Virus record (IMG/VR): IMGVR_UViG_3300025121_000014 | Span: 168,945 to 232,944 of that record | From: a virus | Taxonomy: Duplodnaviria; Caudoviricetes | DNA: 64,000 nucleotides | Strand: one strand, 5' to 3' | Part shown: in pieces, positions 31,738 to 61,866 of the stretch | Layout of the letters: each line of letters opens with the position of its first letter | Position numbering within the stretch: the first letter of the stretch is position 1 | Notes under the pieces: generated by a model | What the model was told of the DNA's origin: nothing | What the model saw: only the letters and a program-made list of their open reading frames with translations | The model's database searches: none | Program-made: the position numbers and the translations under genes

Positions 31738-32079
31738 ATGAAAATAATTAACAATGATATGTTATATTTACAAAATTTTAAAAACTATATTATGAATGAA
31801 AATATAAATCAACATACTGATGACGAAAATTATATTACAAAAATTATTAAAAATATAGATAAAGATTTTAATATTGTTTTTACTGATAGACAAATAATAT
31901 TATCTATACAAAATCGATTTAATAGAGATAATCCTGTTTCATTTTCGAAAATGAAAAAATGTATGGAAAAATTTATAATAATCGAAAAAATATTAAAATA
32001 TAATAATTTAATAAATTCTGATCCAGATGCTATAGAATTAGATACCTATAGAATTAAAGCTAAATACACTTTTAATTAA
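31738..32079 (+). CDS. Hypothetical protein with a CTS-like N-terminus
   Basis: An alternative start at 31759 gives MLYLQNFKNYIMNE. Confidence 0.6.
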   Translation: MKIINNDMLYLQNFKNYIMNENINQHTDDENYITKIIKNIDKDFNIVFTDRQIILSIQNRFNRDNPVSFSKMKKCMEKFIIIEKILKYNNLINSDPDAIELDTYRIKAKYTFN

Positions 32080-32103
32080 ATTCCCTATTTTTAATAATTT
32101 ATA

Positions 32104-32132
32104 TTTTCCTAATTATAAATAAATTAGGAAAA
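32104..32132. other. Perfect 11-bp hairpin
   Basis: TTTTCCTAATT-ATAAATA-AATTAGGAAAA. Confidence 0.55.
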
Positions 32133-32174
32133 AGGAGCAAGATTATGATATATGTATTTTTATTTTTATTTTTA

Positions 32175-32213
32175 TTTTTTTTTTTTTTTTTTTTTTTTTT
32201 TTTTTTTTTTTTT
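32175..32213. repeat. 39-nt poly(T) tract
   Basis: Directly visible homopolymer in an intergenic region. Confidence 0.85.
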
Positions 32214-32308
32214 ACTTTTGATTTCAAAGTTTTTTTCAGACTTTATTTTAAATTTTAAATATATTATACTACTACACTAAAAAATAGGTATAAAATAAAA
32301 TATAATGT

Positions 32309-58257: not shown

Positions 58258-58812
58258 ATGAAAAATGAATTATTAGATTATGATACTGCGAAATTTAAAA
58301 AATTTGGTGGTGAAGTAATTGATGATGTAGCTGAATACATCAAGAATTATATTAAAGACCGGAGTAATATCAGAATTGTCGTAGGATGTGATTCACAACA
58401 AAAAAGAAGAATTACATTATATGCTATTACTATTGTATTATATGATGAAGTAAAGCATAAAGGAGCACACGTATTATTCTTAAGACAAAAATTGAAAAAA
58501 AATAAAGATATGTTTTCAAGGTTAATGAACGAATGCTTATTTTCATTAAATCTTGCTGAATGGTTAAATGAAAAGTTAAAATATTCATATACACCACCTA
58601 AATTTGAAGTAAATTCTTATGATGGTAATTTACCAACTAAAAAAATTGAAGTTCATGTTGATGTAAATCCAATTGCAGGTAGAAATAAACAAAATAAATC
58701 TAATATTGTTTATAATTCTGTTATGGGTATGGTAAGTGGAATGGGTTATAAAGTCGTTTCTAAACCATATGCATATGCTGCTAGTTGTGCTGCAGATTTA
58801 TTAGTAAAATAA
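58258..58812 (+). CDS. RNase H-like protein (YkuK/DUF458)
   Basis: VGCDSQ, RL.NE..FS, IEVHVDVN, KP.AYAASCAAD. Confidence 0.8.
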   Translation: MKNELLDYDTAKFKKFGGEVIDDVAEYIKNYIKDRSNIRIVVGCDSQQKRRITLYAITIVLYDEVKHKGAHVLFLRQKLKKNKDMFSRLMNECLFSLNLAEWLNEKLKYSYTPPKFEVNSYDGNLPTKKIEVHVDVNPIAGRNKQNKSNIVYNSVMGMVSGMGYKVVSKPYAYAASCAADLLVK

Positions 58813-58935
58813 TATTTCTGTTTTTAATATATAATATGTATGATGAATAAAATTTACACAAAAATAAAATATTCCGTTATCGTTTTTAATTAAACTTTAA
58901 TGGATTTTTTATTTAAAAAATAATGTAATAAATTT

Positions 58936-59685
58936 ATGAATAGAGTTTATCCTAAAAAAAGAAACGGAAATGGAAATGGAAATGGTAGTGATGTTATGGA
59001 GTTAATAAAATTAGAAGAAATTACTAAATCACCAAATCAAATTTTAAAAAGAAATATAAAAATTAAATGTAAAAACGAGAAACAAAAAGAATTTATAAAA
59101 CTTATCGATAATAATCAAATAATATTATGTGATGGTCCATCTGGTTGTGGAAAATCTCATTTATCTATATTGAAATCGTTAAGTTATCTTACAGATGAAA
59201 ATACAAAATATAATAAAATATATATTTTAACACCGACTGTCGAAATAACTAAAAATGGTGTAGGTTTTTTACCTGGTTCTTTTTCTGATAAAGTATCTAT
59301 GTTTATGCATAGTGTATATAATTTATTCGATAAAATAATTGGTAAAGAAAATAGTGATAAATTATTAAAAGAAAATATAATTGAAATTTTAGGTCTAGGG
59401 TATATAAGAGGAGAAAATTTAGATAATTGTCTACTTATCGTAGATGAAGCTCAGAATATATCAAAAAAAGAAATGTTAACAATATTAACTAGGATAGGTA
59501 GTAATTGTAAAATGATTATATCTGGTGATATAATGCAAATTGATAATTTTAAAAATAAGGAAGAAAGTGGATTATATCATGCTATTCAAAATTTAAAAGA
59601 TATTAATGATATAGGTATATTTAAATTTACAATAGACGATATAGTAAGAAATACAATTATAAATAAAATATTAGAAAAATATTAA
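58936..59685 (+). CDS. phoH: PhoH-family ATPase
   Basis: GPSGCGKS, GFLPG, RG..LDN..IVDEAQN, LTRIG, GD..QID. Confidence 0.92.
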   Translation: MNRVYPKKRNGNGNGNGSDVMELIKLEEITKSPNQILKRNIKIKCKNEKQKEFIKLIDNNQIILCDGPSGCGKSHLSILKSLSYLTDENTKYNKIYILTPTVEITKNGVGFLPGSFSDKVSMFMHSVYNLFDKIIGKENSDKLLKENIIEILGLGYIRGENLDNCLLIVDEAQNISKKEMLTILTRIGSNCKMIISGDIMQIDNFKNKEESGLYHAIQNLKDINDIGIFKFTIDDIVRNTIINKILEKY

Positions 59686-59763
59686 TATTTCATAAATAAT
59701 TTATTATAATATTTTTGTTTTTTGTATAAATATTTTTTATCTTAGCGATATTAAATAATTTAT

Positions 59764-61134
59764 ATGAACCAATTACAAATATTAAAAGTTATTGAATCTT
59801 GGCGTAAACCGGGAAGATTAGGTGTATCTATTAATGATGTAGATAAATATTTAAACTATGAAGATGTAAAACATTGGTTTTATGTAAATGGTTTTAGTGA
59901 TAATTGGTTTTATATTGCCGTTTATGATAGTTTAATTGTGGGTTATTATTTTAGAAATAATAGAGTTGGTGGAAGAGTTGAAGTATTACCCGCTTTTAGA
60001 AAAAGCGGTATATATGGTCATCTTAATGTTTATAAAGAATTATTAAATAGAATTACAGAAAGATTTCCTAATGAATTTTATTCCACAGTTAGTTGTTTAA
60101 ATATTCCATCATTATCTTCACATTTTAAAAATAATTTTAAAATCGATGTCATTAACCATTATGAAAATGAAAAAGATGATTTCATTTATAATTTGATAAC
60201 AAAAGTTGTAATGGGTAAAAAAAATATTGATGAAAATCCTATAAGTAAAAGAAAAATAAAATTAAATTTGTTTTATGAATATGGTGATAAATCTTATAGA
60301 TATGATGATAAAACGAACTTTTTTAATATCAAAAAAATGTTCATTGATTATTCACGTGAAATAAAATGTTATGTTTTAACACGTAATGGTAAAATATATT
60401 TAGAAAAAAAAGATAACGAATTCGAATTTCCAGAAGGATATAAAAATAAATTTAATGTATATGACGTTAAATATAAATTAATATACCCTAAAGTATCAAC
60501 TAAAATAATTAAAGATAAATCTGTTGTAAAAAAAGATGATTTAAATATTGAAGAAATTAATAAAAAAAATACTTTAATTGATTGGTTTAATAAATTGAAA
60601 CCACTTAATGTTAATTATAGATTATCAATGGAAATACAAAAAAAAGAAATTAGAATAAACAAAGCTAGAAAAAAACAAAAAGAAATGGATAAAATAAAAA
60701 AAGCCGAAAAATTAAAAGTAGAAAAACTTCAAAAATCTGAAAAAATAAGAATCAAAAAACTTAATATAAAAAATAAATTTCTTAAAATTTTTAGATTTAA
60801 AAATTCAAATGAAACAGAAATAGAAAATCTACAAAGAAGCATTTTTGAACAATCTAAAAAATTAAATAAAAATGAAATTAATGATATTAGAGAAAATTTC
60901 ATTAAAAAAGGTAAAGAATTAAAAACTGATATTGTTCCACGTGGAACAATACCAAAAAAGAATGTTGTTAATGGTTTTGCAAGTCATAGACATCTTAAAA
61001 AAAATGAAGCAATTATATCACCTGATGGTTTTATAGAAACCAAACCTAAAATAGAAGAATTTAAGAAAAAAGAAATTTCTGATGATGGAAAAGAAACATT
61101 ATGGGGAAAAATACAAAACAATTTAAATAATTAA
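59764..61134 (+). CDS. Hypothetical protein with a GNAT-like N-terminus and Lys-rich coiled C-terminus
   Basis: VEVLPAFRKSGIY and N.PS...H.KNNF resemble GNAT motifs A and B. Confidence 0.55.
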   Translation: MNQLQILKVIESWRKPGRLGVSINDVDKYLNYEDVKHWFYVNGFSDNWFYIAVYDSLIVGYYFRNNRVGGRVEVLPAFRKSGIYGHLNVYKELLNRITERFPNEFYSTVSCLNIPSLSSHFKNNFKIDVINHYENEKDDFIYNLITKVVMGKKNIDENPISKRKIKLNLFYEYGDKSYRYDDKTNFFNIKKMFIDYSREIKCYVLTRNGKIYLEKKDNEFEFPEGYKNKFNVYDVKYKLIYPKVSTKIIKDKSVVKKDDLNIEEINKKNTLIDWFNKLKPLNVNYRLSMEIQKKEIRINKARKKQKEMDKIKKAEKLKVEKLQKSEKIRIKKLNIKNKFLKIFRFKNSNETEIENLQRSIFEQSKKLNKNEINDIRENFIKKGKELKTDIVPRGTIPKKNVVNGFASHRHLKKNEAIISPDGFIETKPKIEEFKKKEISDDGKETLWGKIQNNLNN

Positions 61135-61866
61135 TTATCTTTTGTGTTCATTTGAATAAACTCCTTCTACTATTGCATCATCTGGTAATACTAAATTAAA
61201 TCTACTACGTTGATAATTACAATATAAATTTCCACCTACATATAATTTTTTACCAATAGTAGTAATAGCATTATTATTTAATTGCAAATCCCCTTCTACT
61301 CTTAAATTATTTGGAATTTTAGTTATATTATTTTTATTTAAATTCAAATTCTTATTTACTTTAAAATTATTTGGAATTTCAGATATTTTATTATTTGATA
61401 AGTAAATACTGCCATCATAACTATTATAATTTGTTTTTAATACTTTTAATTTTTTTGGGAATTCTGTTATATTGTTATTTGGTGCGTACAAATATCCATT
61501 AATTGTAAAATTATCTGGTAATTTATCTATTTTTAAATCATCGTGTAATAAATTTAGGGAATTGATTATTAAAGTTTTATTATAAAAACAAATACCTTGT
61601 TCGTTTCTTGGTAATAAATCATAATCTAGTTTATTTCTAATAATTTGATATATTTTTTCATCATTTGATAAGTCATCTAATGCAAAAATCAATTCTTCTT
61701 TGGTTGGTAGAAAATTTTTAGGCAATCCAAATTCATAAATTTTTTCTACCTGTTCAAATACGTTTAAACTTTTTAATGAATTTAATATTTCATTATCAGA
61801 TTTACCTTTAAGGGTATCCATAATACTTTCATTGATAAATATTTGGAATTTTGTAATCATTTTCAT
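61135..61866 (-). CDS. CTS plus two helical repeats plus LRR-like repeat protein
   Basis: KFQIFINE|SIMDTLKGKSDNEI; about five 22-aa L.V.G.L.L....I..[LI]P.. repeats. Confidence 0.7.
   Translation of the reverse strand: MKMITKFQIFINESIMDTLKGKSDNEILNSLKSLNVFEQVEKIYEFGLPKNFLPTKEELIFALDDLSNDEKIYQIIRNKLDYDLLPRNEQGICFYNKTLIINSLNLLHDDLKIDKLPDNFTINGYLYAPNNNITEFPKKLKVLKTNYNSYDGSIYLSNNKISEIPNNFKVNKNLNLNKNNITKIPNNLRVEGDLQLNNNAITTIGKKLYVGGNLYCNYQRSRFNLVLPDDAIVEGVYSNEHKR

Follow-up and report, generated by a model that had tools for sequence, protein, structure and literature searches.

Candidate T4-type capsid-targeting peptides at the N-termini of nine genes of a Mahaphage-type megaphage

The closest known counterpart of the element described here is the capsid-targeting sequence (CTS) of phage T4, a peptide of about ten residues at the N-terminus of the proteins IPI, IPII and IPIII (Mullaney & Black 1996; PMC9026906, PMC3012670), together with the CTS-like leaders of the variable IP genes in further T-even phages. 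In the T4 record (NC_000866) IPII and IPIII start with MKTYQEFIAE/A and IPI with MKTFKEFTSTTTPVSTITE/A, the slash here and below marking the site of cleavage, known or predicted. For IPIII, residues 1-10 are enough to bring about packaging. The main determinants of targeting are residues 4 and 7, those of processing residues 8 and 10; Asp at position 10 stops processing and leaves targeting unaffected (PMC9026906). Here we study a similar N-terminal tag in a 64,000-nucleotide stretch of viral DNA (IMG/VR record IMGVR_UViG_3300025121_000014, positions 168,945 to 232,944; below, the window), where it is found on nine genes. An initial annotation of this DNA had proposed the likeness to T4; the T4 starts that it quoted (MKTYQEFIAE for IPII and IPIII, MKTFKEF for IPI) agree with NC_000866, and the sufficiency of ten residues, which it also cited, is stated for IPIII in PMC9026906.

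Giant phages of the phiKZ type (201phi2-1, phiKZ gp175, SPN3US gp245) have head, inner-body and ejection proteins with propeptides (PMC5694885, PMC7411985, PMC10052503). They resemble what we propose below in that these giant phages fill the head with dozens of proteins, which a gp21-related protease matures by cutting after Glu, but their propeptides are long and without a common decapeptide, the motif is small residue-x-Glu, and no common targeting tag has been defined. Virion-packed anti-restriction proteins are also known without a cleavable tag, in the P1 Dar system and among the P22 ejection proteins (PMC9024508, PMC8402733). They too travel in the head and reach the cell together with the DNA; there, incorporation depends on dedicated partner proteins or on assembly order, and not on a short removable N-terminal tag.

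We consider it moderately likely that M-K-x-[FY]-x-x-[FY]-[ILV]-(N)-E, the peptide at these N-termini, acts as a capsid-targeting sequence of the T4 type, a reading with circumstantial but convergent support. Judging from this likeness, the nine genes probably encode virion-packed proteins that are delivered with the DNA.

The nine tagged genes of the window

The tagged genes are given below with coordinates, strand, product and, in brackets, the basis of the assignment; lengths are in amino acids (aa), and "regex" stands for a regular expression describing the tag.

31738..32079, plus strand: tagged protein of 113 aa, or 106 aa if counted from the Met at 31759; tag, with one extra residue, MLYLQNFKNYIMNE/N; unrelated cargo (N-terminus read, regex)
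35906..36562, minus strand: module-family member of 218 aa, degenerate tag MKYLKTYE/G, of the sub-variant MKYLKxYNE (paralogy)
41002..41694, plus strand: tagged protein of 230 aa, tag MKKFNEFILNE/A, one residue longer (N-terminus read)
43360..44094, plus strand: tagged protein of 244 aa, tag MKTYEEFINE/S, then SVKDLLRPKSEDEI (N-terminus read; family alignment)
44800..45282, minus strand: module-family member of 160 aa, tag MKNFKNFING (paralogy)
45282..46142, minus strand: tagged ankyrin-repeat protein, 286 aa long if it starts with the Met at 46142; tag MKTFQEFANE/S, then the common N-terminal module (Pfam Ank)
46144..46389, minus strand: small tagged protein of 81 aa, start MKTFKEF equal to residues 1-7 of T4 IPI (sequence identity to IPI)
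47049..47495, minus strand: tagged protein of 148 aa, tag MKRFKQFINE/S (N-terminus read, tag regex)
61135..61866, minus strand: tagged protein of 243 aa, tag MKMITKFQIFINE/S, then the common N-terminal module (N-terminus read; paralogy)

All nine N-termini had been quoted in the initial annotation and were found in place. Two of the Met codons, 46142 and 31759, are internal to longer open reading frames (ORFs); the former is likely the true start, because it lies one base past the stop of the upstream gene and agrees with all homologs.

The conserved positions of the megaphage tag are exactly the four that have been mapped in T4 (4, 7, 8 and 10). When 0-10 extra leading residues are allowed, eight of the nine members have aromatics at 4 and 7, while 35906 has Tyr at 3 and 7; the tag of 43360 is identical to that of IPII and IPIII at 8/10 positions. 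Like the T4 CTS, this is an N-terminal peptide of about ten residues with M-K-T, aromatics at 4 and 7 and, in part of the set, Ile 8 and Glu 10, and it sits on unrelated cargos. It differs from T4 in a strong preference for Asn at P2 and for Ser, Gly, Ala or Asn at P1', and in that, in a large megaphage subfamily, a conserved segment of 15 residues stands between the predicted cut and a region of helical repeats. Further, most of the megaphage cargos are acidic to neutral, and there are ankyrin repeats and, in relatives, enzymes among them. The set is also larger than the three members of T4, as had been anticipated: nine in 30 kb of the window and 58 in a complete relative, LR756501.

The cut site is canonical in 43360, 47495 and 61866, preceded by one extra residue in 41002 and 31759, and has Ala at position 8 in 46142. 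The window set thus consists of six canonical and three degenerate members, and the proposal of at least nine protease-matured proteins has to be reduced to these six. In 44800..45282 no cut is predicted, because Gly replaces Glu. The small protein 46144..46389 is without Glu at position 10 but has candidate sites at YLDDE(17) or YFNE(25), to be compared with the IPI cut at residue 19.

The domains behind the tags had been described as otherwise unrelated. For the C-terminal cargos this is correct; however, five of the nine proteins (35906-36562, 43360-44094, 44800-45282, 45282-46142 and 61135-61866) are paralogs over 40-120 N-terminal residues beyond the tag and share one N-terminal module, so the set does not represent nine independent fusions. 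Behind its tag, 43360..44094 has helical-hairpin repeats, five in number and 32 residues each, and ends in a small alpha/beta domain (phrog_4264; DUF8033-like); a search of this protein against the phage collection matched the C-terminal domain alone. The ankyrin cargo of 45282..46142 is well supported (PF00023 Ank, E 2.4e-28, 97 bits against a cut-off of 21.1; PF12796 Ank_2, E 2.4e-26, 92.6 bits). The proposed leucine-rich-repeat (LRR) cargo of 61135..61866 is weak: LRR_4 (E 0.006) scores 17.2 bits where the cut-off is 27, LRR_1 scores 15 bits where it is 20.6, and only inspection by eye shows an LRR-like repeat pattern. The cargo of 47049..47495 is acidic (pI 4.4), unrelated to the others and of no recognised fold; 46144..46389 had no match in the family searches. 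Identical copies of 35906..36562 occur in several other metagenome assemblies, while tblastn against the phage collection gave no match.

For several tagged genes, translation is coupled to that of the preceding gene. An AT-rich TTAATATATA-like motif stands upstream of tagged and untagged genes equally, and comparison of the upstream regions revealed no promoter class separating the two.

A profile of the common N-terminal module was searched among 1.84 billion proteins and gave 473 representative clusters at E <= 1e-3 (147 at <= 1e-10), all metagenomic. Nearly all of them start with M-K-x-x-[FY]-x-x-[FY]-(I)-N-E-[SG]-[VIL]-[RK]-D-x-[LM]-x-P-K-S-E-E-[ED]-I. In this family, to which the five window members belong, the conserved segment behind the tag is S-x-[RK]-D-x-[LM]-x-P-K-S-E-E-[ED]-I. 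The downstream parts are ankyrin repeats, 32-residue helical hairpins or other domains. Neither Pfam nor PHROGs has a family for the tag or for the module, and the 473-cluster leader/helical-repeat family, being without Pfam annotation, merits one. It is found on a 616-kb contig with phage genes and on IMG/VR contigs, located by a degenerate DNA pattern, with 2-21 matches per contig; these are rated 5-8% complete, which means very large genomes.

Multi-module ankyrin/helical proteins of related contigs (L024/L025, IMG/VR 3300031657_000005, and L004 10001-12499) contain repeated internal junctions of the type [IL]xE/S..LKPKSEEEI. These junctions, [IL]-x-E/S-[LIV]-x-[DN]-[IV]-L-K-[PG]-K-S-x-E-E-I, lack the two aromatics. 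This is as expected if internal sites need the processing determinants only, and plain duplication of the module fits too. Such proteins may be polyproteins cut by the prohead protease.

Relatives, controls and head genes

Two genes give the context of the tagged set:

38378..40999, plus strand: conserved megaphage protein of 873 aa, first gene of an operon (tblastn to LR756501, LR756502, LR756504 and LR745206)
41696..43357, plus strand: baseplate wedge subunit (T4 gp6-like) of 553 aa, flanked by two tagged genes (phrog_219, E 3e-16; phrog_6, E 1.2e-9)

The 873-aa ORF has counterparts with 33-41% identity, covering 79-100% of its length, in LR756501, LR756502, LR756504 and LR745206, which are "uncultured phage" genomes of 634-735 kb. 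In the Mahaphage clade of Al-Shayeb et al. 2020 (PMC7162821) the largest genomes are complete ones of 634, 636, 642 and 735 kb, and Bacteroidetes are the predicted hosts. With this ORF as the marker, the window is assigned to a member of the Mahaphage-type megaphages. LR756501 has orthologs of about 33 window ORFs, synteny being local, around 36.6-44.8 kb, and the ortholog of the baseplate wedge gene is 44% identical. The second gene of the same operon is the tagged 41002..41694.

The window has a GC content of 22%. In its 75 ORFs (20,112 aa) the regex [FY]..[FY][ILVA].?NE has six matches, every one within residues 1-21 and none internal, while composition-preserving shuffles give 0.07-0.08 N-terminal matches and 0.87 anywhere; as the regex was derived post hoc from the sequences and five of the nine proteins are paralogs, these counts are not independent events. 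When a tag regex is anchored at each ATG in six frames of the window, it matches seven flagged gene starts only, and the tag is found on none of the about 30 co-resident sugar and glycosyltransferase genes in window 1-26 kb. For comparison between genomes we scanned with the T4 determinants only, [FY]..[FY][ILV].E within 21 residues of the start:

LR756501 (complete, 735 kb): 58/969 ORFs tagged (~6%); shuffle mean 3.6, maximum 9; internal density 10-fold lower
Two related megaphage fragments: 6/31 and 6/25 ORFs tagged (strict regex)
T4: 2/252 ORFs tagged, exactly IPII and IPIII
Bacillus phage G (30% GC, first 220 kb), negative control: 0/280 ORFs tagged
Flavobacterium phage MaF61: 1/190, the match not tag-like; no match to PF03420 (S77 protease)

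Shuffled controls had been suggested in the initial annotation, as had a comparison with AT-matched genomes; the outcome is an excess in the window and in LR756501, and no tag in phage G. As far as these genomes go, the tag is clade-wide and clade-specific. Flavobacterium phage MaF61 was considered as a cultivated model and rejected, having neither the tag nor a PF03420 match. Where the tag is conserved, synonymous codons are used just as they are on average in the genome, so selection acts on the peptide and not on DNA or RNA; a motif at the nucleic-acid level is thereby ruled out.

A profile search found no member of the module family in LR756501, LR756502 or LR756504. A leader-only profile has weak matches only in these genomes, and the regex is more informative. 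Since LR756501 has the tag but not the module family, the ten-residue tag must be general and the module family one lineage-specific user of it.

In sequence comparison and in a structural model the tag behaves as a detachable add-on. The protein 41002..41694 (MKKFNEFILNE/ANDDV..) has an ortholog in LR756501 (BLASTP, 29% identity, residues 17-226 against 5-218) that starts with MANKIS.. and is untagged: it begins right past the predicted cut. An AlphaFold2 (AF2) model of 43360..44094, made with the family alignment, has a mean predicted local distance difference test (pLDDT) score of 90.8. Its confident fold consists of the five helical hairpins and the small alpha/beta domain, with scores of 95-98 from about residue 21, whereas residues 11-20 average 80 and residues 1-10 only 55. 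Fold searches with this model in PDB and BFVD gave no significant match; the weak matches in BFVD are DUF8033-like phage proteins and concern the C-terminal domain only. For 41002, modelled without an alignment, the pLDDT of 39.7 is too low for use, and an Atlas search gave no usable match.

Tagged GluRS-like aminoacyl-tRNA synthetases are encoded on two related contigs (L004 265-2037 and L026 14149-15939, both on the minus strand). In both, the tag is an extension of 14 or 21 residues, after which the match to the catalytic-domain profile starts at its position 2-3; should the tag be functional, these phages would pack an aminoacyl-tRNA synthetase into the virion. In the tagged set of LR756501, about 50 proteins are without a Pfam match; a methyltransferase, a DeoC-type aldolase, a radical-SAM enzyme and a nucleotidyltransferase also belong to it.

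Like T4, the megaphage clade has portal, gp21-like protease and gp23-like capsid genes, and in LR756501 these form a cassette in T4 order:

LR756501, 71969-73795: portal (PF07230, E 8e-71)
LR756501, 73913-76336: gp21-like protease fused to a long scaffold-like region (PF03420, E 7.5e-6, below the cut-off)
LR756501, 76415-78166: gp23-like capsid protein (PF07068, E 6e-24)
LR756504 (L067), 6343-8637: protease-scaffold fusion with 7 tandem 14-residue [SGAT]EY[LI]AE[NSA] repeats
LR756502 (L068), 6273-8372: protease-scaffold fusion with 9 tandem 14-residue [SGAT]EY[LI]AE[NSA] repeats

The protease-scaffold ORF is 700-810 aa long in LR756501, LR756502 and LR756504, with PF03420 at E 4e-6 to 2e-5. 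An alignment of the three protease domains with T4 gp21 shows that both catalytic residues are kept, His in ..DHP.. and Ser in ..VSSR.., and an N-terminal L-I-[VI]-E site stands at the place of T4 LIE-9. In LR756501, 4/20 INE[AS] sites of the whole genome fall in the protease-scaffold ORF. The three capsid proteins have a common HQ[IM][NH]E/N at residues 39-45, a possible end of a delta-domain; T4 gp23 aligns ambiguously in this part. Because of the gp21 alignment and this reuse of the motif in scaffold and capsid, the protease of the clade very probably cuts after aromatic/any-aliphatic-x-Glu, which is the tag's own ending. Metagenomes contain 1,621 homologs of the protease-scaffold protein, some annotated with PF03420 plus PF20034; of the 120 matches listed, none was traceable to the contig of the window.

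Capsid targeting and the other explanations

By analogy with T4, the tag could work as follows. During head assembly the two aromatics (T4 positions 4 and 7) would dock the tagged protein on the prohead scaffolding core. A gp21-type prohead protease would then cut after Glu, with positions 8 and 10 as processing determinants, and the mature cargo, be it an ankyrin-repeat protein, a helical-repeat protein or a small acidic one, would be freed in the capsid and leave it together with the DNA when a cell is infected. All these steps, from docking and cleavage to packaging and injection, are inferred from the T4 system, and an anti-defence or host-takeover role of the cargos is conjecture. What speaks for capsid targeting, as initially proposed, is the agreement with the T4 positions, the T4-type cassette in relatives, the reuse of the motif and the detachability of the tag, and all of it is circumstantial.

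Several observations weigh against this explanation. The canonical [ILV]-x-E at positions 8-10 is missing in 3/9 window members (44800, ..FING; 35906, ..TYEG; 46389, Glu only at 17 or 25), and in 41% of the module-family proteins P3 is Tyr or Phe (the MKYLKSYNE/S variant) and not Ile, Leu or Val. The segment after the cut is conserved as strongly as the tag itself, which would not be expected from T4. Most mature cargos of the window have an acidic to neutral pI (4.4-7.6 in 6/9), unlike the basic IPII and IPIII of T4, and the location of 41002..41694 in a baseplate operon fits a simple effector picture poorly. In the related fragments the tagged share is higher still by eye, which makes very many species for one capsid, and the tagged proteins of relatives include enzymes (GluRS-like synthetase, radical-SAM enzyme, methyltransferase, aldolase). 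As to the head genes, the PF03420 matches in relatives are all below the Pfam cut-off, and the whole context is taken from genomes that are 33-41% identical in one marker protein. Packaged enzymes do have precedent, in T4 Alt and the P1 Dar proteins.

The paralogy of 5/9 window members over 40-120 residues also suggests another origin of the likeness: common ancestry in one expanded multigene family, where the N-terminus would be the first helix of a helical-repeat domain, spread by duplication and domain shuffling, without targeting or cleavage. The 473 clusters with nearly uniform starts and the junction copies inside multi-module proteins agree with such a history, which we nevertheless find quite unlikely: the tag alone occurs on the non-homologous 41002, 47049, 46144 and 31738 and, in relatives, on GluRS-like synthetases, radical-SAM enzymes and a methyltransferase, and an untagged ortholog of 41002 exists. 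Further, the module family matches none of the 58 tagged ORFs of LR756501, and AF2 leaves residues 1-10 unpacked against the fold. That residues such as Lys, Phe, Ile, Asn and Glu are common at 22% GC, every tag residue having AT-rich codons, makes an artefact of chance or composition worth considering; its probability is close to negligible, and it is refuted by the shuffles (six observed against 0.07), by the absence of internal matches and by the 30% GC control phage, which has none.

Two further explanations accept a functional peptide but not its role in encapsidation. It might be a removable or regulatory propeptide, serving cytoplasmic activation or timing, N-terminal stability or the translation of early codons. 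The protease-type ending of the tag and its presence on housekeeping-type enzymes and on a tail-operon gene would suit this, but T4-type prohead proteases work inside the prohead (PMC9026906), and the best-conserved positions are the two aromatics, which T4 needs for targeting and not for processing. Codon use without RNA-level selection and the about 30 co-resident biosynthetic genes without a tag likewise make this explanation unlikely. Alternatively, the tag could sort proteins to somewhere other than the capsid: a phage-built intracellular compartment, the membrane, or a tail or baseplate assembly line. A predicted short amphipathic helix could bind many partners, the share of tagged ORFs is large, and 41002 is flanked by baseplate genes. 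However, no compartment genes were seen, and the head is the destination suggested by the likeness of the tag to the T4 CTS and to the repeats within the scaffold; the baseplate-operon ortholog is untagged, so the tag is not required for the conserved role of that protein. We therefore regard a different destination as very unlikely, and capsid targeting remains the preferred explanation.

Neighbouring genes and implications

The remainder of the window contains genes of several other kinds. A run of about 30 genes for sugar-nucleotide synthesis and glycosyltransferases occupies the minus strand of window 1-26249; among them, a GDP-mannose-dehydratase-like ORF (4284-5327) is 68% identical to its counterpart in LR756501. 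A type II topoisomerase is split over two minus-strand ORFs, 29753-31552 and 26297-28435, which match residues 1-423 and 422-1082 of one 1082-aa ORF of LR756501, and a 427-aa ORF (28422-29705) sits between them. Two DUF7487 paralogs (50843-52177 and 54388-56112) are 50% identical and lie on opposite strands, with a conserved 712-aa megaphage gene between them; the former has an additional weak Mom-like domain (E 1.5e-5, slightly below the cut-off). A 297-aa ORF (48183-49076) has a signal-peptide-like N-terminus (MKKLLLLLASLFLFISNLF..) and may give a secreted or lipoprotein product; it adjoins a Nudix hydrolase gene (47492-48067). Finally, there are genes for an S1 RNA-binding-domain protein (56902-58155), a PhoH-like ATPase (58936-59685) and a CCA-adding/poly(A)-polymerase-like enzyme (61914-63137), which are usual translation and RNA accessories of huge phages.

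In the literature searched we found no account of a CTS expanded to dozens of megaphage proteins. In its widest form, the idea would be that each megaphage genome specifies, by means of the tag, an "injectome" of dozens to more than 100 proteins, including enzymes (GluRS-like) and multi-module ankyrin/helical-repeat polyproteins cut by the prohead protease at internal [IL]-x-Glu/Ser junctions, so that the capsid delivers a pre-made proteome and the CTS-scaffold interaction is ancient across T4-type heads; this we put forward tentatively and hold to be rather doubtful.

If the tag does act in capsid targeting, a simple sequence rule would list the proteins that uncultivated phages of 0.2-0.7 Mb carry into their Bacteroidota hosts. 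These proteins would be candidate counter-defence or takeover factors that are otherwise hidden among hundreds of unannotated ORFs, and the CTS-scaffold-protease system would be conserved across very distant T4-type heads.

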